DNA from: Acidobacteriota bacterium
GTDB lineage: Bacteria; Acidobacteriota; Blastocatellia; Pyrinomonadales; Pyrinomonadaceae
Length of the DNA stretch: 37,731 nucleotides
Assembly: GCA_029862725.1 (NCBI GenBank)
Contig: JAOTWT010000001.1
Location: 1-37,731 of the forward strand
Direction of reading: 5' to 3'
Shown: positions 4,027 through 36,789 of the stretch, in pieces
How positions within the stretch are numbered: position 1 is the first letter of the stretch
Layout: every line of letters begins with the position of its first letter
Translations under genes and position numbers: made by a program
The notes under the pieces: model-generated
Seen by the model: only the letters and a program-made list of their open reading frames with translations
The model's database searches: none
What the model was told of the DNA's origin: nothing

Positions 4027-4875
4027 CTATTTACCCAACAACAAGTTATACAGTCTATCCAAGTCTTCAGTCCCATAGTATTCGATCTCTATCTTACCGC
4101 TTTGCCCCTGCCTGGCCGGTATTATTTTTACCTGTGTTCCCAGTTTTCTTCTGAGTCTTGTTTCGGCCTTTTTAAGATTCGGATCCGCCGGCGCCGGTTT
4201 CGGACTGGCCTTCCGCGGCTTTCTCTTTGCGGCCTTTTCTGCGTCCCGCACCGAAAGACCGTGCAAAAGGATTGCGTTTGCGAGTTCCTTTTGACGAGTC
4301 GTACTCTCTATCGAAAGCAGGGCTTTGGCATGCCCAACCGAGATTCTTCCTTCACCAAGATGGACGAGTACTGGTTCCGGTAAGTTCAATAACCGCAAAT
4401 AGTTAGCAATAAACGTCCGCGTTTTCCCGACCCTTTCCGCAACTGCCTGCTGTGTCAACCCGAGATCATCGATCAGTTTCTGATAGGCCTTGGCTTCTTC
4501 CACCGGATTCAGTTGCTGGCGTTGAATATTCTCGATCAATGCGATCTCGAGCATTTTGTCGTCGTCAATTTCCCTGACAACGGCAGGTATGTGTTTCAAA
4601 CCCGCTTTCTGCGCAGCGCGCCAACGTCGTTCTCCGGCGACGATTTGATACTTGGTTCCTCTCGCGCGCACGAGTATCGGTTGGACCACCCCGTTTACCT
4701 GAATCGATTGCGTCAACTCATCTAATTCGGTTTCCGGAAAACTGTCTCGCGGCTGTTCCGAATTTGGTTCGACCATTTCGATTCCAATTTCGAGAAAGTC
4801 CTTTTCCTTATTTGCCCCGGCTGTATCCTCTCCTAAAAGAGCACTCAAGCCGCGTCCCAACGCTTGTCTAGCCAT
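4027..4875 (-). CDS. parB: Chromosome partitioning protein ParB/Spo0J
   Basis: 282 aa with LGRGLSALL, the ParB box IVAGERRWRAAQKAG, and an HTH region (LTQQAVAERVGKTRTFIANYLRL). It overlaps the parA stop by 8 nt. Confidence 0.93.
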   Translation of the reverse strand: MARQALGRGLSALLGEDTAGANKEKDFLEIGIEMVEPNSEQPRDSFPETELDELTQSIQVNGVVQPILVRARGTKYQIVAGERRWRAAQKAGLKHIPAVVREIDDDKMLEIALIENIQRQQLNPVEEAKAYQKLIDDLGLTQQAVAERVGKTRTFIANYLRLLNLPEPVLVHLGEGRISVGHAKALLSIESTTRQKELANAILLHGLSVRDAEKAAKRKPRKASPKPAPADPNLKKAETRLRRKLGTQVKIIPARQGQSGKIEIEYYGTEDLDRLYNLLLGK

Positions 4876-5629
4876 GGTTTAGAATCTCCTTTGCAAGCTG
4901 CATGTAGCTTTCGGATCCGCGTGACCGTATATCATAGAGAATAATAGGTTTACCAAAGCTCGGAGCCTCGGCGAGCCGAACATTCCGGGGAATAACCGTG
5001 TCGAGCACCTGGCTCCCGTAGAAGTCTCTCAAATCACGCGCGACAGCCGCAGAAAGGTTTGTGCGTTCATCATACATTGTCAGAAGAAGGCCCTCGATTG
5101 TGAGTTCCGGGTTGAGTGATCTTCGCAACCGAGCGAGTGTATCAAAGAGTTCTGTGACACCTTCCAATGCAAAATACTCGCACTGTATGGGTACCAGCAA
5201 CGAATCCGCTGCGGTCAATCCATTGACGGTCAAAAGGCCAAGTGAAGGCGGACAATCGATGATTATGTAATCAAATTCTGATTTCGCAACATCGAGTAAT
5301 TCTTTGAGCTTATATTCTCTCCGGTCTTGGTCTACAAGTTCGATTTCCGCCCCCGCGAGGTTCTTGTCGGCTGGGATTACCCACAACAGGGGAAACTCAG
5401 TCGGGAATATTATATTTTCAAGCGGTACCTGATTTGAGATCGCATCATAAAGCGTTTTTCGCGATTTTTCCCTAATGACTCCGGAACCGGATGTTGCATT
5501 TCCCTGTGGATCCGCATCCACCAAAAGAACCGTTTTTTCCTCCACGGCGAGGCCGGCGGCAAGATTAACGGCGGTCGTTGTCTTACCCACACCCCCTTTT
5601 TGATTTGCGATGGCGATGGTTTTTCCCAT
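4868..5629 (-). CDS. parA: Chromosome partitioning ATPase ParA/Soj
   Basis: 253 aa with the deviant Walker A NQKGGVGKTTTAVNLAAGLA, plus DADPQGNAT and IIIDCPPSLG. Confidence 0.95.
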   Translation of the reverse strand: MGKTIAIANQKGGVGKTTTAVNLAAGLAVEEKTVLLVDADPQGNATSGSGVIREKSRKTLYDAISNQVPLENIIFPTEFPLLWVIPADKNLAGAEIELVDQDRREYKLKELLDVAKSEFDYIIIDCPPSLGLLTVNGLTAADSLLVPIQCEYFALEGVTELFDTLARLRRSLNPELTIEGLLLTMYDERTNLSAAVARDLRDFYGSQVLDTVIPRNVRLAEAPSFGKPIILYDIRSRGSESYMQLAKEILNHG

Positions 5630-5732
5630 TTGTAACAGGTATTAATGCGGTATTCGGAAGAGACAAATCTAGCACAATTCACCATTCCTAGCTAGGCGAA
5701 TCGCTCAGTTCCCGGCACTCAGCACTCAGTGG

Positions 5733-5748
5733 TGTTCCACGTGGAACA
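5733..5748. promoter_or_regulatory. parS centromere-like site (perfect 16-bp palindrome TGTTCCACGTGGAACA)
   Basis: Matches the Firmicutes-type parS consensus TGTTNCACGTGAAACA at 15/16 positions. It lies about 100 bp upstream of parA. The dyad extends to 34 bp with one mismatch (5724..5757: ACTCAGT-G-GTGTTCCACGTGGAACAC-A-ACTGAGT). Confidence 0.75.
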
Positions 5749-5755
5749 CAACTGA

Positions 5756-5783
5756 GTTTCAAGTTTCAGGTTCCAGGTTTCAA
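5756..5783. repeat. Heptamer tandem array GTTTCAA/GTTTCAG/GTTCCAG/GTTTCAA (x4)
   Basis: Read directly from the sequence. The units are the reverse complement of the TTGGAAC-type heptamers at 5920..5968. Confidence 0.85.
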
Positions 5784-5880
5784 GTCTGCCGGGCAACGGC
5801 TTCGAGCTCCAGAAAATCCTTTTCTTCATAAAAATGAGAAGTTATTTAGCAGACGTTGAAATTCGAGCCATGGACTTGGG

Positions 5881-5901
5881 GTCCGAAGTCCGAAGTCCGA
5901 A
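5881..5901. repeat. Perfect tandem heptamer GTCCGAA x3
   Basis: Read directly: gtccgaa gtccgaa gtccgaa. Confidence 0.9.
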
Positions 5902-5919
5902 GCTTCAAACCTTGAATTC

Positions 5920-5968
5920 TTGGAACTTGAAACTTGAAACTTGGAGCTTGGAACTTGGAATCTGGAAC
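5920..5968. repeat. Heptamer tandem array TTGGAAC-like x7
   Basis: The units are ttggaac ttgaaac ttgaaac ttggagc ttggaac ttggaat ctggaac. Positions 5919..5941 are the inverted complement of 5755..5777 with 2 mismatches. The array abuts the mnmG stop codon. Confidence 0.85.
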
Positions 5969-5974
5969 CCTTCT

Positions 5975-7867
5975 CTAGGCTTTGGCTTTCTCGGCGGTGA
6001 GGTGTACAAGGACGGTGGACAGGGCGACCGGCGTCAGCCCGCTGATCTTCCGAACCTGGCCAAAAGTACTCGGCTGCGCGCGTTCGATTCGTTCGACCAT
6101 CTCATTCGATAAACCGCTAATTGCGTTGAACTTAAAGGTTTTCGGCACTCGCAGATTGTCGTGTTTGTTAACACGCGCAGTTGCCTTGTCATGTTTCTTG
6201 ATGTAGCCGGAGTAGAGAGAATCCGCGAGCGCGGTTTGAAGGTCGCGTTCGTTCGTCTCCGCTTGAGCTTCGGGAGGAAGAAGTTTAAGAATCAATTCGG
6301 TATTTACTCCGCGACGCTGCGCAAGCTGCGAAAGCGTCACCGAATCCCCGAGATCGCATCCGAGCAATTGCGAGGCGGCAGCATATTCCGAATCGGAACG
6401 CTTGAACCGAACGTTGTCCAGTGTGTTCCTCAGCCGCGCAATCCGGTCACGGCGAAGATTGAACCGTTCCCAATCTGTTTCGTCAACAAGCCCGGCTTCC
6501 CTGCCTTTCGGCGAAAGCCTCAGATCCGCATTGTCATGCCGCAGCGTCAGCCGTGCTTCGGCACGTGATGTAAATATCCGGTACGGTTCATCAACCCCGT
6601 GACGGATCAAATCATCGACCAAAACCCCGATATATCCCTCTTCACGGCCTAAAACCAAAGGTTCCCGTTGTTCCACGTGGAACACGGAGTTTAGTCCAGC
6701 CATCAGGCCCTGGCAGGCCGCTTCTTCATAACCCGTGGTACCGTTGATCTGACCTGCAAAAAACAGCCCCTTGATTCTGCTTGTTTCCATCGACGGCCTG
6801 AGTTCACGCGGGTCGACAAAGTCGTACTCGATGGCATAGCCGGGGCGTATTATACGAACCTCCTCAAATCCCTCGATTCTTCTCAATAGGTCCTGCTGAA
6901 GATCCGCGGGCAATGAAGTAGAAAACCCATTCAGATACACCTCGTTGGTGTCATGCCCTTCTGGCTCGAGGAACAACTGGTGACGATCTTTCTCACCGAA
7001 CTTTACGACCTTGTCTTCAATAGAAGGACAATATCGCGGCCCGATCCCCTTTATGGCACCCGAGTAAAGCGGCGATTTTGAAATGTTTGCACGGATATCG
7101 TCATGCAACGCCTGATTCGTATAACCAATGTGGCAGTTTATCTGTTTTTGGCTGATCGACTCGGTTGCAAACGAAAATGCCACCGGTTTTTCGTCAGGTC
7201 TCTGTTCTTCAAAGGCATCCCAGTCAATCGTCCGTCCATCCAGCCTCGGAGGGGTTCCCGTCTTGAGACGACCGACGGGGAAACCCAATTCCTTCAGATT
7301 CTGCGCTAATTCGATCGAGGCCGGTTCGCCGGCGCGGCCCGCCGAGTAATTGCGATTGCCTGTGTGGATCTTGCCGTTCAGAAATGTGCCGGTCGCAACC
7401 ACAACCGCCTTCGCACCGAAACGCCGGGTATCCTGCATTTCCACACCAATAACTTGTTTATTATCAACAATTAGCCGAACCACAAATCCCTGTCGAAAAT
7501 GCAGATTCGGAGTCGCTTCAAGGACGCGGCGCATCTCGGTCCTGTACAGCGCGCGGTCCGCCTGGGCCCTCGGCGACTGCACCGCCGGTCCCCGCGACCG
7601 ATTCAAAAGTCGAAACTGAATTCCCGTGCGGTCGGCCACCCGACCCATTATCCCGCCCAGAGCATCGATCTCGCGGACGATGTGTCCCTTTGCGATACCG
7701 CCGATCGCGGGATTGCACGACATCTGCCCGATCAGATCGAGATTTATCGTGACCAGTGCAGTTTCCGATCCGAGACGTGCAGCGGCCGAGGCCGCCTCGC
7801 AACCCGCATGACCTGCGCCGATCACAATTACATCAAATGTTTCGTCAAAGTACATAAAAAATGGCAC
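5975..7867 (-). CDS. mnmG: tRNA uridine 5-carboxymethylaminomethyl modification enzyme MnmG (GidA)
   Basis: 630 aa with the FAD-binding N-terminus FDVIVIGAGHAGCEAA, plus NPAIGGIAKGH, GPRYCPSIEDK and FFAGQINGTTGYEEAA. The start could instead be the ATG at 7852 (MYFDETFDV...). Confidence 0.95.
   Translation of the reverse strand: MPFFMYFDETFDVIVIGAGHAGCEAASAAARLGSETALVTINLDLIGQMSCNPAIGGIAKGHIVREIDALGGIMGRVADRTGIQFRLLNRSRGPAVQSPRAQADRALYRTEMRRVLEATPNLHFRQGFVVRLIVDNKQVIGVEMQDTRRFGAKAVVVATGTFLNGKIHTGNRNYSAGRAGEPASIELAQNLKELGFPVGRLKTGTPPRLDGRTIDWDAFEEQRPDEKPVAFSFATESISQKQINCHIGYTNQALHDDIRANISKSPLYSGAIKGIGPRYCPSIEDKVVKFGEKDRHQLFLEPEGHDTNEVYLNGFSTSLPADLQQDLLRRIEGFEEVRIIRPGYAIEYDFVDPRELRPSMETSRIKGLFFAGQINGTTGYEEAACQGLMAGLNSVFHVEQREPLVLGREEGYIGVLVDDLIRHGVDEPYRIFTSRAEARLTLRHDNADLRLSPKGREAGLVDETDWERFNLRRDRIARLRNTLDNVRFKRSDSEYAAASQLLGCDLGDSVTLSQLAQRRGVNTELILKLLPPEAQAETNERDLQTALADSLYSGYIKKHDKATARVNKHDNLRVPKTFKFNAISGLSNEMVERIERAQPSTFGQVRKISGLTPVALSTVLVHLTAEKAKA
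6669..6684. promoter_or_regulatory. Second parS site, identical 16-mer TGTTCCACGTGGAACA, inside the mnmG coding sequence
   Basis: Exact copy of the 5733..5748 palindrome. It encodes ..VFHVEQ.. of MnmG. Confidence 0.7.
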
Positions 7868-7943
7868 CGCAAACCTTCGATTTTACTTCATCCAAGGATT
7901 CGATGCCAACAAAAAACGTATTTGCCTACGGGCGTTCAGGCCT

Positions 7944-9437
7944 TCACTGCCAGCGCCCCTTCAGGGCCTTTGCCGGAAACTTGACCGACTGGATACCACC
8001 GAGCCTCACGCGATCAGAGTTCTTGAACGACGCGAAGGGCATAAGACCTTCGTCCAGCAACACGTTCATTCCCACATCGGTCATCTCGATCTCGGCACAA
8101 GGTTTTGATTGAGTTCCTTCGGCGGTTTTATAGACATGGACCGGAAGACCGTCGAGATCGAGTTCGTACCGGCCGCCAATTTCCCAGCCATACCTGCTGA
8201 AGCTCGCTCCGATTACCGCGGCAAACCCGAAAACCGGGTTCATCCAAAGATAGTCGTCGTGTTCAGGGCGTCCGTCACACTCCTCAAAAGAAAAGACTTC
8301 CGTCGGGTCCGTTTCCTCTCCGTAAGGCAGACGCGCGAGCAGACGAGGTGCGACCATACCGATCGATGTCGCATGTTCCGATGCCCGCAACGCGGTCCAA
8401 AGCTTGCCCTCCGCAGTGTCGGATTTCGTATCCCACGACTTATGGTCCGAATGATCGGCAAAAGAACGGATCCCGAGCATCCCGGGCCGTACGTGCGAAA
8501 CAAACGGCGAACCCGTTACTCCCGATATCGCACCGACTCGCATCAACGCGGCAACGTCCTCGACCGTGAGATCAAAATCGTATGCTCCGGCTATGACGGC
8601 CCAGGGTTCGTTCTCGTTTTCGGATGAGCCTCCCAGGAGTAGATCGGAAAGCGTGCTCGTTTCTTTTTTGATCTCCTCAATAAATCGCTCTTTTCCGATG
8701 TCGAGGACAAAGATCTTGAGTTTCGTAGAGGTTTCGATCTTGCGGCAAATCATATAAAGCCCGCGCCAAGCCGCCTCCAAAGCCCTAAAAGCCTTATCCC
8801 GCAGTATCTTGCGCATAATCCCGCCGGTCACGTCGTCAACCGCGGATATCAACTTCGCCTGCTCCTCCTCGTCGACCTTTACCAAAAAAGGATCGACGAC
8901 TTCTTTGACGAAATCTTTCAGAGGCGTTGATTTCTGCCGTTTGTAGGCGGCCGCCTCCCGTGTCCTCGAGCCCAGGATATCTTCGAGGAGCCCTTCGCCC
9001 CCCTCCACTTCTACCGGAGTTTCGATCTCTTCGGCGGGTGCCGGCTCTTCGCCCTCGTCGGAGAACCATTCTCTGACTTCCGTGGCGGCAGACTTAAAAG
9101 TGCTTTCGTTTTTAAGGCGCCCTCGAATGCTGCGAAGTTCGTCAAAAATCGCGACCGACTTAAATAAGCTGTCCGGATGAAAGTCGTCGAGCTCTCGAAA
9201 ACCGATTCCGATACCGGACGTATCCCCGGTTGAAATACTCACTTTGGGTGCAATACGGGCCATCACCTCGGTGACGTCATCGCGATCTATCTGTCTTATT
9301 CTAAATGGTTTAACGGACTCACTATGGCCCGAGAAGTCTCCCAAAACCAGGATATGGAATGGCGGATCTTCGGGTATCTCGACACCTGCCCTTTCCATCG
9401 AAACTTCCGCCTCTAAATTTGTTCTTTCAGGATTCAT
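7944..9437 (-). CDS. Solitary T6SS sheath-like protein: TssB(VipA)-like N-terminus fused to a C-terminally truncated TssC(VipB)-like body
   Basis: 497 aa. The N-terminus PPFHILVLGDFSGHSE..IDRDDVTEVM..FRELDDFHPDSL..ELRSIRGRL resembles VipA. An acidic linker follows (DEGEEPAPAEEIETPVEVEGGEG). The VipB-like part carries LLEDILG, FRALEAAWRGLYMI, WAVIAGAYDF, VAPRLLARLPYG, YLWMNPVFGFA and LDGLPVHVY. The protein ends about 115 aa before the VipB C-terminus. The comparison is to V. cholerae VipA/VipB recalled from memory. Confidence 0.7.
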   Translation of the reverse strand: MNPERTNLEAEVSMERAGVEIPEDPPFHILVLGDFSGHSESVKPFRIRQIDRDDVTEVMARIAPKVSISTGDTSGIGIGFRELDDFHPDSLFKSVAIFDELRSIRGRLKNESTFKSAATEVREWFSDEGEEPAPAEEIETPVEVEGGEGLLEDILGSRTREAAAYKRQKSTPLKDFVKEVVDPFLVKVDEEEQAKLISAVDDVTGGIMRKILRDKAFRALEAAWRGLYMICRKIETSTKLKIFVLDIGKERFIEEIKKETSTLSDLLLGGSSENENEPWAVIAGAYDFDLTVEDVAALMRVGAISGVTGSPFVSHVRPGMLGIRSFADHSDHKSWDTKSDTAEGKLWTALRASEHATSIGMVAPRLLARLPYGEETDPTEVFSFEECDGRPEHDDYLWMNPVFGFAAVIGASFSRYGWEIGGRYELDLDGLPVHVYKTAEGTQSKPCAEIEMTDVGMNVLLDEGLMPFASFKNSDRVRLGGIQSVKFPAKALKGRWQ

Positions 9438-9512
9438 ATTGTTTTCCCTTTTGATTTTTTCTCAACTATATCCTCGGGCACGACAAAATCAAGTTTTTTC
9501 TTCGGGAACACG

Positions 9513-9543
9513 AAAAAAGCGCCCGAACTCGATATTCAGGCGC
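9513..9543 (-). terminator. Rho-independent terminator (minus strand)
   Basis: The minus-strand RNA reads GCGCCUGAA-UAUCGAG-UUCGGGCGC, a 9-bp stem with one G-U pair, followed by UUUUUU. It lies about 100 nt downstream of ORF 9648..9881 and upstream of the sheath-like gene. Confidence 0.55.
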
Positions 9544-9647
9544 GAAATGAAGACCAGTCGGTCATTTGAGGGGTGATCACTAAGAACGGGCTGTTTCTCT
9601 CGGTATTGTGGTCATCTGTGGAAATTGCAATGGCAGCCAACGCCGCA

Positions 9648-9881
9648 CTAGATTTTCAATTTGTCCGTTTCGGCTAGACGAATAATCAACTGAAACGGCG
9701 GCGTCGATGGATTTGGAGGGCGACCGCTGGTCTCTTCGAAAATGATCGAAAGCTCCTCGTATTTTGTAAAAAAGCTCTCGCGGCTCACCCGCCCGATTCG
9801 AGTGCAGATTCGAAAGGCGCGCTCACCCGCCGCGTTGATCTTAAACTGGAACGCTAATTTGCTTCCCCGGTTCCCTGACAA
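9648..9881 (-). CDS. Hypothetical small protein (TTG start; the frame is open for a further 40 codons upstream)
   Basis: 77-aa ORF with non-repetitive, beta-rich-looking sequence, followed by a good terminator. No recognisable family and no clear RBS. Confidence 0.3.
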   Translation of the reverse strand: MSGNRGSKLAFQFKINAAGERAFRICTRIGRVSRESFFTKYEELSIIFEETSGRPPNPSTPPFQLIIRLAETDKLKI

Positions 9882-10325
9882 GAGTTCGTATGAACCAATA
9901 TCGATTTTCGGTATCGCACATTCGACATTGGTCCAAAGGAACTCTGCAGTATCCTGGGCAGCGCAAACTACATAAAGCCTGAGTGTTTCGGATTCCTCAC
10001 TTCAAGATTCTCTATGCTAGAGCTGCAACGCCCGACATATATTGTCCTCCAGAAAGGGTTAGATTTGGCCCGCAGGAAGACCCGCGGGTCCTAGTATTTG
10101 TAAGAAATCTGGAAGACACGTGCTGGAACGATGTAAAAGTAACACTGAACCCCGCGAGAGTCAACGATGTTAATCAATTTTAATACAATATGTGGGGTGT
10201 AAATAACGCTTGATATCTATATAGAGGGGTATGCGACGGCATTGGAACTAATCAAACCACACCCCGGCCGAACTCAAGAATTCGCTCGGAATCGATCCGC
10301 GACAGACTCCTCTCGGTAAAAGACA

Positions 10326-10601
10326 CTAGTCTTCGTTCCTGCTTCGGAAACGTTTTCTCGTCCGGTGCCCGCCACCGAAATAAGTCAGGATCAAAACCAG
10401 CAGATGCGCGGCAAACCACAGGTTTTCATAGCCCATATTCTGATAAATATAAATCAGGATCAGAATTCGGGGCACGAAAATGCCCAGCACTACATCGAGG
10501 ATATCGGGAACCGTGTTTGCCGGAAACCATCCCTGGATCAGATATACGACCAGCGTAATCCGCGGAAAAAACAGCGAAAACAGTAAAAAATAGAAATCCA
10601 T
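10326..10601 (-). CDS. Hypothetical small integral membrane protein (about 3 TM segments)
   Basis: 91 aa. The segments FYFLLFSLFFPRITLVVYLI, ILDVVLGIFVPRILILIYIY and LWFAAHLLVLILTYF are hydrophobic helices, followed by a basic C-tail. Confidence 0.5.
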   Translation of the reverse strand: MDFYFLLFSLFFPRITLVVYLIQGWFPANTVPDILDVVLGIFVPRILILIYIYQNMGYENLWFAAHLLVLILTYFGGGHRTRKRFRSRNED

Positions 10602-16559: not shown

Positions 16560-17366
16560 ATGAAATTGAAAGCCGGAAAATTTTACGGAAAAACGTCCCG
16601 TACCTTTACCGGAGGGGGGCTTCGATTTACCGAAAAATCCTATAATACCTACGCGAAACTTCCCGTTCATGCTCATGAACTTCCGCATTTTTGTCTCGTG
16701 CTTGCAGGTAATTACAACGAAACGATTGGCAGCCAGAATTTCGAGAGACAACCGATGGCGCTCGTGTATTACCCGCCTGATGTAAGCCATTCCGAAGAAC
16801 ATTTCAAAAACGGCAGGCATTTCCTCGTCGAATTCGATTTCGAATGCCTGGATCGGGTCAGAAATTATGGTGCCACGCTGGACAGGCCGCTTTTCCTAAA
16901 CGCAAGGCCGTCGCTTGAGATCGCGCTTCGCATGTATAAAGAATTCAGCAACCGTGACGATTTGTCGGCGCTGGCGCTCGAGAGTATTGCAATGGAACTT
17001 CTTATCGCGACTTCAAGGCAAAAACCCGGCAAGAGCGATCAAGAACCGCCAAAGTGGCTGAAGAGGGCCAAGGAATATCTTGACGAGTATTACCGGGAGG
17101 CCCCGGGGCTGACCGAATTGGCGGCAGCCGTCGAAGTCCACCCGACCCACCTCGCGAGAGTATTCCGAAAGTTTGAGGACTGTACTGCGGGCGATTATTT
17201 GCGAAATGTGCGCATAAGGAAAGCACGCCACGAACTGCTTTCGACAAAAACACCTCTGGTCGATATTGCCCTCGATACGGGTTTCTCCGATCAGGCGCAT
17301 TTCAGCCGGTCATTCAAAAAAGCTACCGGGATGACCCCCTCGAAATTTCGCTCGACCTTTGCCTGA
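16560..17366 (+). CDS. AraC family transcriptional regulator
   Basis: 268 aa. The C-terminus has the dual HTH (LTELAAAVEVHPTHLARVFRKF...; IALDTGFSDQAHFSRSFKKATGMTPSKFR). The N-terminal part looks cupin-like. Confidence 0.9.
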   Translation: MKLKAGKFYGKTSRTFTGGGLRFTEKSYNTYAKLPVHAHELPHFCLVLAGNYNETIGSQNFERQPMALVYYPPDVSHSEEHFKNGRHFLVEFDFECLDRVRNYGATLDRPLFLNARPSLEIALRMYKEFSNRDDLSALALESIAMELLIATSRQKPGKSDQEPPKWLKRAKEYLDEYYREAPGLTELAAAVEVHPTHLARVFRKFEDCTAGDYLRNVRIRKARHELLSTKTPLVDIALDTGFSDQAHFSRSFKKATGMTPSKFRSTFA

Positions 17367-17490: not shown

Positions 17491-18882
17491 ATGAAGTTGA
17501 TATCCGCGACCGTGTTTGTTTCGCTGTTCTTGTACTCGTTTTGTTTCGGACAAGCCCAAAAAACAATAGACACCTCACGAGAAGAATTGAGTCGCAAGAT
17601 ACAGGACGTCATCGACCCGCTGGCTAAATCCAACAATTACGGCGGAACCGTGATTGTTCAAAAGGGCGGGAATTACATCTTCAAGCGTTCGTATGGTTTT
17701 GCCGACCGCGAATCCAAAATCGAACATTCAGCCCAAAGCAAATTCTTTCTCGCGTCAGTTTCGGCGATGTTTACTGCGGCAGCGGTAATGAAGCTCATCG
17801 ATCAGGGAAAATTGTCTCTTGACGATAAACTCTCGAAGTTTGTTCCCGGGATAAAGAATGGAAACAGAATGACGATCCACATTCTGCTCACCGAAAGATC
17901 CGGGATCCCGAGAATCGGTTCGCAAGGAAACGTGAATTACACAACCTTAACTGAGTCTCCACAATCGATCGACGATTTGATCGGACATATCAAGGCTCTG
18001 AATCCGGTTTCCGAACCCGGAGCGAAATATGAACATTCGCGGTCGTCTTACATTTTGTTGGCGAGGGTCATCGAGAAGGTGTCAGGAAAACGGTTTGGAC
18101 AATTTCTCAAAGACGAGGTTTTTATCCCACTTGGTATGAAAAACTCAGGGCATTTTTCAGAGCGGGATGCGCTCGACAAGATACCGAATCTCGCAAAAGG
18201 GTATGTTCAGAAAGGCGTCACGGATCTTTCCCCGGCGCCTGTGCTTCACTGGTCATCAAAGACGGGGCACGCGTCGATCTATTCGACCGCAGAAGATCTT
18301 GAAAAATTCGCAAACGCAGCACTGAACAAAGAATTCTTGAGTGCGGAGTCCTGGAAGAAACTGCAGTCTCCACACGATGGCGACAATGTCGGCTACGGGG
18401 TCTTTACTTCGCCGCAAGGGACCCACAAACGATTCTATATGAGCGGTGGATCGCCCGGGTTCTCGACCTTTTTTGCGGTTTATCCGGATGAAAAACTGGT
18501 CGTGATAATGCTTTCGAATATTCAGATCTTTGTCCCTTATTTTACGGTGCCGACGCTCGCCTCGATCGTCTTCGGCGAACCATACGAAAGACTTAACCTC
18601 GTCACACCGCCGGATGTTGATGAAAAACTCGCAGGCAGGCTTCGCGGCAGTTTCAAATTTGGCGAAGATTTTTACCGCCCGAACGGGACCGTTAGTATTA
18701 CCGCCGAAGGGAACAGGCTTTTCGCCGATGGCGGACCGCTGATACCGATAGACGATGGCAAAGGCGAATTCACAAGATTTATTCACCGCCGGTACTGGTC
18801 CACGCTCGAGTTCAAGAAGAACAGCACGGGCAAGATCGTCGGTCTAAAATTCGATAGTTTTTCGGGCACCCGGATTGAATAA
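17491..18882 (+). CDS. Beta-lactamase-fold serine hydrolase family protein, exported; SxxK lysine replaced (S-V-S-A)
   Basis: 463 aa with signal peptide MKLISATVFVSLFLYSFCFGQA. Family hallmarks are FFLASVSAMFTAAAVMKLIDQGKLSLDDKLSKFVPG and YILLARVIEKVSG. The position of the catalytic Lys is Ala (codons 17755..17766). Confidence 0.85.
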   Translation: MKLISATVFVSLFLYSFCFGQAQKTIDTSREELSRKIQDVIDPLAKSNNYGGTVIVQKGGNYIFKRSYGFADRESKIEHSAQSKFFLASVSAMFTAAAVMKLIDQGKLSLDDKLSKFVPGIKNGNRMTIHILLTERSGIPRIGSQGNVNYTTLTESPQSIDDLIGHIKALNPVSEPGAKYEHSRSSYILLARVIEKVSGKRFGQFLKDEVFIPLGMKNSGHFSERDALDKIPNLAKGYVQKGVTDLSPAPVLHWSSKTGHASIYSTAEDLEKFANAALNKEFLSAESWKKLQSPHDGDNVGYGVFTSPQGTHKRFYMSGGSPGFSTFFAVYPDEKLVVIMLSNIQIFVPYFTVPTLASIVFGEPYERLNLVTPPDVDEKLAGRLRGSFKFGEDFYRPNGTVSITAEGNRLFADGGPLIPIDDGKGEFTRFIHRRYWSTLEFKKNSTGKIVGLKFDSFSGTRIE

Positions 18883-18932
18883 GCCGGGTCCGGCGAACCG
18901 ATCGCGTAAGTTTTCAGTAATGAAGTAAAACA

Positions 18933-20210
18933 ATGAAGAGAATAAACAAACGATCGCTGCTGAATTGGATAACGGTTCTAGGCATACTATCCACGACCTT
19001 ATACGCACAATCTCCAGACGCAAAGGCGATCGATTCCTTCGTCGCGCCCTTTTCCGATGCGAATCATTTCTCCGGTGTAGTACTCGCGGCAAAAGACGGC
19101 AAAGTCTTCTATGAAAAGGCATTCGGTCTGGCCAGTGTCGAGCACGACGTCCCGAATAAGACAACCACGAAATTCGGTATTGCCTCGATAAACAAACCGA
19201 TGACATCGGTTGTTTTGCTCCGCCTTATCGAAGCCGGAAAGATCGGATTCGGAGACAAACTCAGCAAATTTATTCCGGACTTCCCAAAAGGCGACAAGAT
19301 AACGATCGAGATGATCGCACAGCACCGATCCGGGATACCGCATCGGGTGATTCCTGCGGAGGAGCAGGCGAAACGATATACGCCGGCTGAGTTTATCGAG
19401 ATCGTCAAAAAGGCGGAACTCGAGTTTGAACCCGGAACCAAAGACTTGTACAGCTCAGCCGGTTATGCGGTGCTTGCTAGAGTCCTCGAGATCGTTTCGG
19501 GCAGGCCGTTTGATTCGCTGCTTGAGGAATACGTTTTCACCCCGGCCGGAATGAACGATTCGCTCGATTTTGACAGCAGGACGATCATGAAGAACAAGGC
19601 CGAGTGCTATTTTCTAGGGATCGATGGTTATACGGCAGCTCAAAACATGGATTATTCGTTCCTCGTCGGTGCCGGCTCGGTCTTTAGCACCGCCAGAGAT
19701 ATTTACAGGTACGGGATGGCGAACATCGACGGGAAATTCGGGAAGACAGTGCAGCAGTATTATGTCAGGGACGGCGTGTTCCGCAGTAACGGCAGCACAA
19801 ACGGGTACCGCTCAAACATAAGGATCGACAGCAACAAGAAATACGGATACGTGCTTGTCTCAAACCTCGGGTCGGGCGCCAACGACCTGATCCTAAACAA
19901 CCTTCGAAACCTGCTCGAAGGAAAAGAAGTGGTCAAACCCGAGATCCCGAACCCGAAGATCGACAATAAGATCAAAAATACCCTGAACGATTATCCGGGC
20001 CTCTACAAACTGGGCGGAAGCGGTTTCGAAATCCTGACCGAAGACGAACGTCTCTTCGCGGGGCCTTTCAGGCTCTACCCGATCGGCAAAGACAGGTTTT
20101 ACAATTTCTGGAGCTATGCAGAGGTGACTTTTGTAAGGGACTCAACCGGCAGGGTAACCGGACTCCAATGGGTCGGTTCCGGCGGCAAGAGCGACTGGAC
20201 CAGGCAGTAA
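18933..20210 (+). CDS. Beta-lactamase-fold serine hydrolase family protein, exported (intact S-I-N-K)
   Basis: 425 aa with a signal peptide ending in LYAQS. It carries FGIASINKPMTSVVLLRLIEAGKIGFGDKLSKFIPDF and LYSSAGYAVLARVLEIVSG. Confidence 0.88.
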   Translation: MKRINKRSLLNWITVLGILSTTLYAQSPDAKAIDSFVAPFSDANHFSGVVLAAKDGKVFYEKAFGLASVEHDVPNKTTTKFGIASINKPMTSVVLLRLIEAGKIGFGDKLSKFIPDFPKGDKITIEMIAQHRSGIPHRVIPAEEQAKRYTPAEFIEIVKKAELEFEPGTKDLYSSAGYAVLARVLEIVSGRPFDSLLEEYVFTPAGMNDSLDFDSRTIMKNKAECYFLGIDGYTAAQNMDYSFLVGAGSVFSTARDIYRYGMANIDGKFGKTVQQYYVRDGVFRSNGSTNGYRSNIRIDSNKKYGYVLVSNLGSGANDLILNNLRNLLEGKEVVKPEIPNPKIDNKIKNTLNDYPGLYKLGGSGFEILTEDERLFAGPFRLYPIGKDRFYNFWSYAEVTFVRDSTGRVTGLQWVGSGGKSDWTRQ

Positions 20211-35517: not shown

Positions 35518-36789
35518 TTGGCGTCAAACTCGAACCGCGCCCGACCTTTTCATACCACCTATGACGGCGAGAACAAACAAATCAAGGTCGAGGACTCGGG
35601 CGACAACATCATTGGCGAATACTTCTTCGACGGTCACGGAAAACGGGTAAAGAAGGTCGTTCCTTTGACCGGCGAAGCGACGATCTTTCACTATGACGCG
35701 GCCGGCAAGCTGATAGCCGAGTATTCGACAATCGTTGAGCCAATATCGACAGCGCAGGTTAGTTACCTTACAAACGATTATCTCGGCAGCCCTAGAATCA
35801 CGACCAACAAGGACGGAGATGTTTATTCAAAGCGTGACCTTCTGCCGTTTGGCGAGGAGTTGACTGCCGTGAGCACAACTCAAAGAGCCGGCTATGGAAC
35901 TGACACGGTCAGGCAAAAGTTTACCGGGTATGAAAGAGATAGTGAGACAGAACTCGATTTTGCTGTAGCAAGGATTCATAACTACAATCATGGCAGATTC
36001 AGCTCACCAGATGATTGGCTGAATGATACTGCCCCCGAAAGCCCAAAGTCATGGAATCTTTATACATATGTTCGAAACAATCCCCTGCGCTATATTGATC
36101 CCGTGGGCGAAAAGATTTACGTGTACACCACACGAGAAGTAGAATCTAAAGATGATGAAGGAAATATCGTAAAGAAAACGGAAACTGTCGTCCTTCGTTA
36201 TGCTGAAGGAAAATTGTGGAACGTGTATACAGATAATGCAAAAGTGGAATATGCGGGAGATGACAAGTACGCAAGGGCAGTTCAAAAAGACTTGAATGAA
36301 TTGAAAGAGAAGGGCAACGATGTAGTAAAAGATGTCATTTCAACACTTGAATCAAGTGATAACAGCCATAGAATTTCGATGCCGGGCGGGGGAGGTTCGG
36401 CAGATTCAGAGAGTAAGGAGCGCCGGGCCAAAGGCAAGCCAACCGGCAGCTACATTGGGTATAATCCTTGGGATACCGACATCGGTGAGTCTGATCGCCT
36501 GGAAACGGGACCTGCTGCGATTACCCTATTTCACGAATTGGGGCACGCTTGGATATTTGATCAAGGAGCTTACAGCGATGTTTCTGACGTTTTTTCACAG
36601 TTCAATGGGAGTAAGCTCATTGAGGGCACCGAAGTCCAAGCTGTTTGGTTTGAAAACCAGGCTTGGTCAATTTACGACGGAATAAAGCCGAGAAAAACTT
36701 ACGCTTTTGAGATCCCGGAAGCGAATTTTGCTGAAGCTCGTAAGGCTTACGAAAGGAGACGCAATGCAGCGAAGAATAAGTTACCTTAA
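35518..36789 (+). CDS. Orphan Rhs C-terminal module: YD repeats, Rhs core end, then a polymorphic toxin domain with a HExxH zinc-metallopeptidase motif
   Basis: 423 aa with a TTG start. YD repeats include TTYDGENK, YFFDGHGKRV and FHYDAAGKLIAEY. The core end reads GYERDSETELDFAVARIHNYNHGRFSSPD...NLYTYVRNNPLRYIDPVGE. A 225-aa C-terminal domain follows, with LFHELGHAW (36532..36546) and EGTEVQAVWFENQ, reminiscent of NleD/M91-type Tox-MPTase domains (tentative). Confidence 0.8.
   Translation: MASNSNRARPFHTTYDGENKQIKVEDSGDNIIGEYFFDGHGKRVKKVVPLTGEATIFHYDAAGKLIAEYSTIVEPISTAQVSYLTNDYLGSPRITTNKDGDVYSKRDLLPFGEELTAVSTTQRAGYGTDTVRQKFTGYERDSETELDFAVARIHNYNHGRFSSPDDWLNDTAPESPKSWNLYTYVRNNPLRYIDPVGEKIYVYTTREVESKDDEGNIVKKTETVVLRYAEGKLWNVYTDNAKVEYAGDDKYARAVQKDLNELKEKGNDVVKDVISTLESSDNSHRISMPGGGGSADSESKERRAKGKPTGSYIGYNPWDTDIGESDRLETGPAAITLFHELGHAWIFDQGAYSDVSDVFSQFNGSKLIEGTEVQAVWFENQAWSIYDGIKPRKTYAFEIPEANFAEARKAYERRRNAAKNKLP

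Follow-up and report, generated by a model that had tools for sequence, protein, structure and literature searches.

What is a protein with the make-up of a type VI secretion system (T6SS) sheath doing in front of mnmG and the chromosome-partition genes parA and parB? The question is raised by the minus-strand gene at positions 7944–9437 of the window, the window being the whole 37.7-kb stretch of acidobacterial DNA that was analysed. The gene encodes a protein of 497 aa, which we call FUS. In the usual view, a single TssB/TssC pair makes up the T6SS sheath. The most likely answer, as argued below, is that FUS is an accessory sheath relative stranded beside chromosome-partition genes rather than a new minimal machine.

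FUS is a single chain in which an acidic disordered linker joins a TssB module to the first two thirds of TssC. In the Pfam search, PF05591 (T6SS_VipA) matches residues 4–110 (E = 7.8e-12; 45.7 bits against a cut-off of 24), covering only profile positions 7–122 of 155, and PF05943 (the VipB N-terminal domain) matches residues 195–485 (E = 1.4e-55; 188.9 bits against a cut-off of 27), covering profile positions 2–300 of 301. PF18945, the VipB C-terminal domain and gp18-like polymerisation/interlocking region, is present in the canonical TssC proteins of related loci but was not found in FUS by Pfam, even at E values up to 10. The NCBIfam models behave accordingly: TIGR03355 (TssC) scores 191.4 bits, under its equivalog cut-off of 271.5, over profile positions 16–355 of 473, and TIGR03358 (TssB) scores 39 bits, under its cut-off of 97.25. 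In direct alignments, residues 17–152 of 172 of the canonical TssB of locus L093 (phmmer) match FUS residues 8–133, and residues 21–371 of 495 of canonical TssC match FUS residues 149–488. What is absent amounts to ~124 C-terminal residues of TssC and ~20 of TssB, whose residues 153–172 have no counterpart. An earlier note, made from the sequence alone, had described a single-chain fusion lacking the TssC C-terminal domain; that description holds, as does its early stop point, while its figure of ~115 missing TssC residues has to be raised.

The short C-terminus is not a truncation artefact, since 39 homologs stop at the same point with a conserved ...GRW and mnmG begins only 76 bp past the stop codon. 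W496 is invariant, G494 is also invariant in a broad FUS alignment, and the tail is conserved in all FUS classes. The AF2 model of FUS has a compact fold (pTM 0.77), with pLDDT of 81–93 across residues 21–120 and <50 across residues 128–170; confidence is low for the N-terminal strand and the ClpV-type helix described below. The best Foldseek matches of the model are TssC chains (E = 3e-22), and the PDB sequence matches are TssC/VipB/EvpB, so that both the profile and the monomer-model checks proposed in the earlier note bear out the TssB/TssC homology. The amphipathic N-terminal strand (residues 8–15), which matches that of TssB, appears to be kept, and the TssB–TssC pairing module is probably retained within the single chain.

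FUS also carries a short conserved helix, GLLEDILGSRT, ahead of its TssC-like module. Among class A FUS homologs, L150 and L151 never vary and I154 and L155 hardly do; the helix lines up with S[IL]LDQIVE in the canonical TssC encoded alongside. It resembles the ClpV-binding peptide of EAEC TssC2, ATDDCLEEIINNTRA (PMC5048182). By this likeness, a ClpV-recruiting helix would be kept in FUS, the clade of the window included. The motifs common to the FUS family (PF..LGD.SG, DDFHPD, the LLD.IL helix, RLPYG, and the C-terminal GRW) are all found in the window protein, and many core residues, such as W224-R225 and R369-L-P-Y-G373, are identical in FUS and canonical TssC. The features of the gene and its surroundings are collected in Table 1.

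Table 1. Features of the FUS gene, its protein, and the adjoining DNA (window positions).
Feature	Position	Strand	Basis
FUS gene, fused TssB-like/TssC-N-terminal-like, 497 aa	7944..9437	-	ATG start; stop codon 7944-7946; only PF05591 and PF05943; end-to-end homologs of ~500 aa
TssB/VipA-like module, aa 8-133	9039..9416	-	phmmer alignment to canonical TssB of L093; PF05591; AF2 pLDDT
Acidic, variable, predicted-disordered linker, aa 134-148	8994..9038	-	pLDDT <50; homologs differ here in length and sequence
Conserved short helix GLLEDILGSRT, aa 149-159	8961..8993	-	counterpart, by position and sequence, of canonical TssC N-terminal ClpV-recruitment helix
TssC/VipB N-terminal-domain-like module, aa 172-488	7974..8924	-	PF05943; PDB sequence matches; Foldseek; equals TssC residues ~45-371 of ~495
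Family-specific C-terminal tail, ending ...KGRWQ	7947..7973	-	W496 and G494 invariant; canonical TssC runs on from here into its C-terminal domain
mnmG (gidA), adjoining FUS downstream, 76-bp gap	5975..7867	-	Pfam; conserved order in 32 loci
parA, after mnmG	4868-5629		Pfam
parB, after parA	4027-4875		Pfam
Two overlapping sigma-70-like promoter matches just 5' of FUS start codon	9438..9492	-	consensus match only
Terminator-like hairpin and T-run 5' of FUS gene	9519..9543	-	10-bp stem, 6 GC pairs
Promoter-like match (10/12) in FUS-mnmG spacer	7880..7909	-	consensus match

FUS is solitary in the window, as first noted: a Pfam scan of all ORFs of ≥100 aa found no other T6SS domain there, and tblastn with ten T6SS core proteins found no T6SS core gene. 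A protein search of the genome contigs with FUS alone led to one locus. The terminator-like hairpin and T-run upstream suggest that FUS may begin its own transcript; no terminator-like site was found between FUS and mnmG. Several other identities were tried for the locus and set aside. PADLOC defence models match neither FUS nor seven upstream ORFs, and Rfam yields no RNA element in the window at gathering thresholds. The unknown small genes upstream, which the earlier note had described as flanking FUS, have weak Pfam matches or none, and they are not conserved beside FUS elsewhere save for one 91-aa membrane ORF common to the window and a single relative (L001); they were dropped as partners. 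The GC content of the FUS gene (0.56, against ~0.50 in its surroundings and 0.53 in mnmG) is not a striking difference, and synteny favours vertical descent over horizontal transfer into the window.

FUS belongs to a large family. The best 120 homologs listed all carry PF05591 and PF05943 at ~500 aa, more than 150 clusters at 50% identity, likewise of ~500 aa, align end to end, and 529 metagenomic loci hold relatives. PGAP names the family "contractile sheath domain-containing protein". Outside the lineage of the window, FUS is found inside canonical T6SS loci, as in Pseudoduganella, on a Phaeobacter plasmid, and in Sedimenticola and Bryobacterales; in all, ~25 loci of other family members have FUS within or beside a T6SS cluster. 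The Pseudoduganella locus encodes TssM, L, K, FHA, VgrG, PAAR, ClpV, TssG, F, and E. The Phaeobacter plasmid is annotated with tssA, B, C, hcp, E, F, G, H, vgrG, PAAR, tagH, K, L, and M, to which FUS is an extra. Sedimenticola and one other genome have FUS loci with TssB and a PF18945-bearing TssC, and 13 metagenomic FUS loci have a separate TssC of 494–503 aa. Hcp, ImpE, and TssA are conserved neighbours of T6SS-embedded FUS. Since 16 T6SS loci carry a normal TssB and a full-length TssC as well, FUS has to be seen as an additional sheath paralog rather than as what sheathes a minimal system.

A neighbour-joining tree of 93 FUS and 14 canonical TssC sequences (296 columns, without support values) gives the same picture. 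The 14 canonical TssCs are monophyletic and stand apart from all 93 FUS sequences, FUS is monophyletic with respect to them, its deepest branches are T6SS-embedded, and the mnmG-adjacent clade is nested as one branch within FUS. The FUS family arose beside canonical tssB/tssC in T6SS loci and is still there in several phyla. In the lineage of the window, Pyrinomonadaceae/Blastocatellia, one relocation put FUS between mnmE and mnmG, and the gene has been vertically inherited at that site since. Complete or near-complete genomes in which FUS adjoins mnmG include CP065003.1 (GCA_016700175.1), ERZ25072999 ctg322002 (3.84 Mb), ERZ25070591 ctg148511 (4.53 Mb), JGI Ga0604654_0000001, and MAG JABDKD01. 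Our literature search found no published description of the family or of any fused or truncated TssBC paralog, and a 2026 review of T6SS accessory genes includes no FUS-type protein.

How might such a protein act? The interlocking inner domain of a normal sheath protomer comes from the C-terminal regions of TssB and TssC, and polymerisation depends on them. It has been shown that the TssC C-terminus is essential for tubule formation and that its N-terminal 212 residues are enough for TssB binding (PMC3597794). Since the essential C-terminus is absent from it, FUS is predicted not to polymerise with TssB into contractile tubules around Hcp. Without the interlocking parts, FUS would not accept neighbouring subunits and would build no sheath alone. 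We propose that it is a non-propagating sheath-like subunit that could dock on the end of a sheath, or on a partner of the sheath such as ClpV, thereby adjusting how sheaths assemble, how long they grow, or how they are recycled. End-capping and ClpV binding are activities that FUS could have, judging from its homology and its missing parts. In the organism of the window, FUS would work for a T6SS whose genes lie at another place in the genome; from the comparative data, such a T6SS is predicted to have its own tssB/tssC, with FUS as an additional component. We put the chances of this reading, a non-polymerising accessory working for a distant T6SS, at about even.

The main competitor, which we regard as possible but on the unlikely side, is that FUS has been exapted: it would be a T6SS-independent housekeeping protein of Blastocatellia/Pyrinomonadaceae genomes that have no T6SS, vertically inherited, with expression from the mnmE-mnmG-parAB cluster near the origin, and could for instance be a scaffold or an adaptor of a Clp-type unfoldase. 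The place of the gene supports it. In 32 loci the next gene downstream of FUS, on the same strand, is mnmG, after a median gap of ~94 bp, and the order FUS-mnmG-parA-parB is fixed across relatives with only 37–59% identity; the adjacency pointed out in the earlier note is both real and conserved. No T6SS gene was found within 10 kb of FUS in these 32 loci. Variable islands insert 5' of FUS and rarely between FUS and mnmG, and sister lineages, too, carry FUS in unrelated housekeeping contexts outside any T6SS. In one subclade, the gene immediately before FUS encodes a PilZ-domain protein, which also fits a housekeeping role; being absent from the window, PilZ was rejected as the partner of FUS there. 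The interpretation given in the earlier note is only partly supported, as other lineages place FUS in complete T6SS loci; mnmG adjacency is a property of the window's clade.

Against exaptation, origin-proximal synteny is very stable in general, so that FUS may lie beside parAB with no functional tie between them. The clade has also kept both the ClpV-type helix and the C-terminal GRW. Moreover, a new function would usually leave a shift in conserved residues, and none is detectable from the alignments: at 76 positions the window's clade and the T6SS-embedded members conserve an identical residue, at none do they conserve different ones, and only 5 conserved positions are lost in the clade. 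Diversity is equal as well, with a mean identity of 0.48 in the clade (36 members) against 0.49 in T6SS-embedded members. The occurrence of T6SS in these bacteria is itself a matter of conflicting preprints and weak evidence. One, an AnnoTree search, reports T6SS genes in only 14 acidobacterial genomes, all of them Holophagae, which favours a T6SS-free setting; another counts Blastocatellia among MAGs with matches to T6SS tube, sheath, and spike, which does not.

A different job within a T6SS is improbable in our estimation. FUS might travel with VgrG as a spike or effector factor, or might be a brake on the cell's own T6SS that titrates ClpV or sheath subunits. Such a job is supported by the retained ClpV-type helix and by at least nine loci in which FUS is beside vgrG: it lies directly 5' of vgrG on the same strand in L050, L054, L060, and L093, with one small ORF between them in L047 and L069, and is divergent from vgrG in L009, L010, and L095. 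Some of these loci are small vgrG islands with DUF4123-type adaptor genes. In other T6SS loci, however, FUS sits directly 5' of tssB-tssC, and the mnmG-adjacent clade has no vgrG nearby.

Far less probable still is an option that the earlier note had raised, in which FUS itself would polymerise within a minimal contractile or filament system not described before. In its favour, the protein is solitary and conserved, and its fold is sheath-like. Yet the TssC C-terminal region, experimentally essential for tubules (PMC3597794), is absent from FUS; tube, baseplate, and spike partners are wanting; the upstream unknown genes are not conserved with it; and the family coexists with canonical TssB/TssC in 16 T6SS loci. 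That FUS is a functionless, decaying leftover of a lost T6SS sheath gene, as its missing C-terminal domain and absent T6SS neighbours might suggest, is scarcely credible and is refuted by the conservation pattern: intact ORFs of the same length occur in hundreds of loci, the 36 clade members average 48% identity yet keep the 76 family-wide positions and the C-terminal Trp, and the truncation point is common to the entire family, T6SS-embedded members included.

FUS is of interest as a widespread and conserved third sheath-related protein that appears to have kept the pairing module and the ClpV-type helix and has lost exactly the interlocking module. Should it cap, seed, or brake sheath polymerisation, or titrate ClpV, it would be a new control point in T6SS firing. 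For the window's clade, this leaves either the rare case in which one structural paralog of a T6SS stays, far from its machine, at a fixed site near the origin, or a phage-tail-derived fold domesticated for another purpose; exaptation, if true, would mean a sheath-fold protein with a new cellular job. Cultured hosts of FUS exist in Pseudoduganella, Massilia, Duganella, and Phaeobacter sp. G2; in Pseudoduganella aquatica, Massilia sp. Root418, and Phaeobacter sp. G2, the gene sits within the T6SS locus. Naming is a practical concern, in that annotation pipelines label FUS proteins "contractile sheath large subunit" or "ImpC", and T6SS-free genomes can thereby seem to encode a sheath.

Among known systems, the canonical TssB/TssC pair (VipA/VipB, HsiB/HsiC; PDB 3J9G, 5N8N, 5URW) is the closest, being homologous to FUS over the aligned spans given above and supplying, with its TssC chains, the best PDB sequence and fold matches. 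The pair is made of two polypeptides and FUS of one; the pair has the TssB C-terminus and the PF18945 domain of TssC, and FUS has neither. Canonical TssC forms a separate clade, and FUS is encoded in addition to the canonical pair, not instead of it.

Agrobacterium tumefaciens offers a parallel in TssC40 (Atu4340, ImpD), a second TssC-like gene in a T6SS locus, next to the sheath gene TssC41; TssC40 is required for Hcp secretion (PMC3702570). It sets a precedent for an additional TssC-related protein that does not merely duplicate the true sheath protein whose gene lies next to its own. In contrast to FUS, no fusion of TssC40 to a TssB-like module is reported. In tblastn, FUS picked up only a single site in each rhizobial plasmid record, that of canonical tssC, so TssC40-type genes are probably not close relatives of FUS. 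One rhizobial plasmid locus that we examined has no second TssC-like gene. The engineered fragments HsiC1 1–212 and BcsKC 1–212 bound TssB and formed no tubules (PMC3597794), which is the behaviour predicted for FUS, with the pairing region kept and the polymerisation region gone. These fragments are laboratory constructs, whereas FUS is natural and conserved, retains much more of TssC, up to residue ~371, and has its TssB-like partner in the same covalent chain.

Contractile systems place specialised sheath-related proteins at particular positions, and extracellular contractile injection systems (eCIS) have multiple sheath paralogs, such as Afp2/3/4 and Pvc2/3/4. The similarity of eCIS sheath proteins to the FUS model is weak in Foldseek (E = 1e-4 to 1e-1; TM ~0.3). 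The sheath initiator TssE/gp25 consists of the interlocking domain only and primes the first sheath ring. FUS is its converse, having everything but the interlocking domain.

The FUS open reading frame joins two sheath domains in one chain. Pfam places T6SS_VipA (PF05591) at aa 4–110 (E 7.8e-12, profile positions 7–122 of 155) and the VipB N-terminal domain (PF05943) at aa 195–485 (E 1.4e-55, positions 2–300 of 301). The VipB C-terminal domain, PF18945, has no match in FUS with the E cut-off relaxed to 10, and the NCBIfam TssC model is covered at positions 16–355 of 473 only. Alignment to canonical proteins from related loci equates FUS aa 8–133 with TssB 17–152 of 172 and aa 149–488 with TssC 21–371 of 495; therefore, about 124 TssC and about 20 TssB residues have no counterpart. 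By sequence, the nearest solved structures are TssC/VipB/EvpB chains, aa 195–490 matching residues 32–338 of the 461 in chain 5N8N_B, and TssB chains match the N-terminus. The AF2 model (pLDDT 79.6, pTM 0.77) is compact, with aa 1–21 and 128–170 disordered, and its top Foldseek matches are TssC chains (E 3e-22 to 1e-13). The short C-terminus is genuine, since 39 homologs share the end point ...GRW, with an invariant Trp, and mnmG lies just 76 bp beyond the FUS stop codon. Thus, the fusion-like TssB/TssC protein described in the earlier note is borne out by domains, alignment and fold, as is its missing TssC C-terminal domain by the absent PF18945 and the alignment end.

The FUS family is real, widespread and uncharacterised, and is clearly derived from the T6SS sheath. 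The 120 closest homologs listed are all about 500 aa and contain PF05591 and PF05943 only; the hosts named among them are Pyrinomonadaceae, Aridibacter, Blastocatellia and Acidobacteriota. When 1.84 billion representatives were searched exhaustively, over 150 clusters (50% identity) were listed, all of them about 500 aa long and alignable over their full length, at identities as low as 31%. Queries with distant members extend the family to Bryobacterales, Rokubacteria, gammaproteobacterial MAGs, Candidatus Sedimenticola and cultured Oxalobacteraceae (Pseudoduganella, Massilia, Duganella, Rugamonas), and 529 relatives came from JGI metagenomes scanned with a single pattern. Database names are generic: "ImpC", "contractile sheath large subunit", "contractile sheath domain-containing protein" and "TssC1 N-terminal domain-containing protein".

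Gene context was analysed in 96 loci (L001–L096) by tblastn, ORF clustering and Pfam. In the window, FUS is flanked on one side by tatC, tatA, an AIR-synthase-like gene, parB, parA and mnmG, and on the other by unrelated or unknown genes. Pfam detects no other T6SS domain in any window ORF of at least 100 aa, and ten T6SS core proteins used as tblastn queries have no match there, so the earlier claim that FUS lacks T6SS neighbours stands. The window's clade (class A), the Pyrinomonadaceae/Blastocatellia copies adjoining mnmG-parA-parB, has 37–59% identity to the window protein. In 32 loci of this clade, FUS immediately precedes mnmG on the same strand (median gap about 94 bp; at most 168 bp in 26), and the mnmG adjacency noted earlier is thereby conserved. 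Then follow parA, parB, the AIRS-like gene, tatA, tatC and a GWxTD protein; where the contig extends, the upstream order is rnpA-yidD-yidC-jag-mnmE. All 32 loci are free of T6SS genes up to 10 kb from FUS. The mnmE–FUS interval is variable, with an integrase and MmeI island, M78/DUF4411, PilZ and cNMP-binding genes as examples, and is an integration hotspot, as marked by the L005 island.

Several features accompany these loci (Table). In bacteria, rsmG (gidB) usually lies between mnmG and parA-parB. The PilZ ORF of one mnmG-adjacent subclade is absent from the window. Peptidase_M91 domains are known from effectors that bacteria secrete.

Outside the window's clade, many FUS copies lie within T6SS loci; the Table gives examples labelled by source annotation or Pfam. 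Two arrangements recur, as follows. The first is (901-aa unknown)< (455-aa membrane/TPR-like unknown)> FUS> TssB> TssC> Hcp> ImpE> TssA> TssE> TssF> TssG> ClpV, with a TssC of 494–503 aa; the second is ...ClpV> FUS> VgrG. FUS and canonical full-length TssC occur together in 16 loci, and no T6SS-embedded locus with sufficient coverage is missing canonical TssC. The two conserved proteins preceding FUS, both without Pfam matches, may represent additional T6SS accessory genes, likewise uncharacterised. The methyltransferases that recur directly beside FUS might modify FUS or the sheath. For the 656-aa ORF of L096 there are two readings: a full-length TssB-TssC fusion that occurs naturally, or an artefact of long-read assembly through frameshift or merging. 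Other solitary copies follow a Bat/VWA operon, or come after tldD/pmbA and are followed by a DinB-family gene; in two of these latter loci, mnmE is found a few kb upstream.

Table. Features of the window and of compared FUS loci.
Feature	Location	Detail
FUS ORF	window 7944-9437 (-)	ATG start, intact, 497 aa
parA-parB directly after mnmG	window 4868-7867; class-A loci L001-L007	no rsmG; 345-bp spacer in its place in the window
Stretch upstream of FUS	window 9438-10326	~900 bp, no convincing gene
Sole ORF in this stretch	window 9648-9881	77 aa; no homologs in related loci
Strong terminator-like hairpin	window 9519-9543 (-)	ends this stretch
AraC-type regulator gene	window 16560-17366	upstream of PF00144 pair
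Tandem paralogous beta-lactamase-family genes (PF00144)	window 17491-20210 (+)	463 and 425 aa
Peptidase_M91 "Effector protein" ORF	window 35518-36789 (+)	423 aa, E 3e-9; 26 kb from FUS
PilZ ORF directly upstream of FUS, same strand	L004 9551-9931; L020 2100-2393; also L017, L018, L021, L023, L025, L031, L032, L036	~100 aa, PF07238, E 4e-14
Island between mnmE and FUS	L005 746-9826	9 kb; tyrosine integrase, HTH_17, AAA_25, zinc-ribbon/DUF6371 protein, MmeI-type restriction-modification enzyme
FUS in ABC transporter	L042 2776-6675	odd solitary context, between ATPase (ABC_tran) and permease (ABC2_membrane) genes
Pair preceding FUS	L075 5589-9836; also L051, L052, L083, L084, L090	900 aa, opposite strand; ~455 aa, membrane segment and TPR-like C-terminus
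FUS-adjacent methyltransferases	L096 11518-13056; L086 11742-14883 (also L066, L067, L081, L082, L092); L009 11495-12847; L095 12259-13344; L012 7450-8322	MTS/DUF7059-type, PKMT-like protein-lysine-methyltransferase-type, TPR-methyltransferase; start overlaps FUS stop in L096
656-aa ORF	L096 13373-15343	PF05591, PF05943, PF18945; TssF of L096 in three ORFs
Pseudoduganella aquatica	CP086370	TssM, TssL, TssK, FHA, VgrG, PAAR divergent from FUS; other side ClpV, TssG, TssF, TssE, ImpE
Phaeobacter sp. G2 plasmid	CP104105	complete locus tssA-B-C-hcp-sciE-tssE-F-G-H ... FUS-vgrG-PAAR-tagH-tssK-L-M-tagF
Candidatus Sedimenticola		TssA, TssB, TssC (PF18945 present), Hcp, ImpE, TssE, TssF, VgrG
954-kb contig		FUS flanked by TssM, L, K; other side TssB/TssC gene with PF18945, ImpE, TssA, TssE, F, G

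A neighbour-joining tree of the TssC-like part (296 columns, 107 sequences) was rooted on canonical TssC, which is monophyletic there. FUS forms a single clade, in which the deepest branches belong to T6SS-embedded members (Phaeobacter, Bryobacterales, Pseudoduganella, a gammaproteobacterial MAG). Nested within it, the mnmG-adjacent sequences make up one clade, with other solitary copies closest to them. The simplest history would be a tssB-tssC duplication within a T6SS locus, accompanied by fusion and by loss of the C-terminal modules; spread of the fused gene along with T6SS loci; and one relocation into the mnmE/mnmG spacer in an ancestor of the window's lineage. This history is provisional because the tree carries no support values.

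The evidence linking the window's FUS to a T6SS is indirect and points both ways. We give about an even chance to an accessory function for a T6SS encoded elsewhere. Counted for a retained T6SS-type function are the equal internal diversity of the mnmG-adjacent clade and all other FUS (mean identity 0.48 vs 0.49), the 76 positions conserved as the same residue in both, and the retention of the ClpV-type helix and C-terminal GRW. No position is conserved yet different between the two groups, and only five are conserved outside the clade but variable inside. One preprint, also counted here, places Blastocatellia among MAGs with matches to T6SS tube, sheath and spike. A T6SS-independent housekeeping role in the window's lineage seems to us rather unlikely, though it would suit the fixed housekeeping position, the 32 loci devoid of nearby T6SS genes, the solitary FUS of sister lineages and a preprint report that T6SS genes are rare in Acidobacteria. 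We assign the rest of the probability to minor alternatives or to T6SS-linked roles of another kind. The interpretation in the earlier note is supported in part; the minimal contractile system that it suggested is rejected.

In the VipA/VipB cryo-EM structures, the inner interlocking domain is built from the TssB C-terminus and the TssC C-terminal domain, and it takes strands from adjacent protomers. For P. aeruginosa HsiB1/HsiC1, the N-terminal 212 TssC residues are enough for TssB binding, the TssC C-terminus is required for tubule formation, and phage-sheath homology spans HsiC1 aa 332–489 (PMC3597794). Compared with HsiC1, FUS has the TssB-binding region but is without most of the C-terminal tubule region. 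Two short elements are kept inside its otherwise disordered segments. The amphipathic N-terminal strand LEAEVSME aligns with VQIEYDVE of TssB. The GLLEDILG helix follows the acidic linker, and its L150 and L151 do not vary within the window's clade. It aligns with S(I/L)LDQIVE, the N-terminal helix of co-encoded canonical TssC, and is similar to ATDDCLEEIINNTRA, the peptide of EAEC TssC2 that binds the ClpV N-domain (PMC5048182). We suggest that FUS would be a one-chain, non-propagating sheath-like subunit that ClpV could still recognise. It could perhaps dock on the sheath end and block further growth, and its role might be that of a cap, terminator, brake or ClpV-titrating factor.

The FUS family adds to T6SS biology in a worthwhile and testable way, and its orphan clade near the origin raises a clear yes/no question. 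Targeted full-text literature searches yielded no account of a TssBC paralog that is fused or truncated, and a 2026 review of T6SS accessory genes includes no sheath-like accessory protein. Agrobacterium has a second TssC-like gene, TssC40, alongside TssC41, and TssC40 is non-redundant and needed for Hcp secretion (PMC3702570); FUS searches of rhizobial plasmids did not detect TssC40-type genes. FUS is homologous to TssB/TssC, yet it is fused, contains no PF18945, forms a separate clade and scores below both NCBIfam equivalog cut-offs (TssC, 191 vs 271.5 bits; TssB, 39 vs 97 bits). By membership tests, it is neither a TssB nor a TssC.
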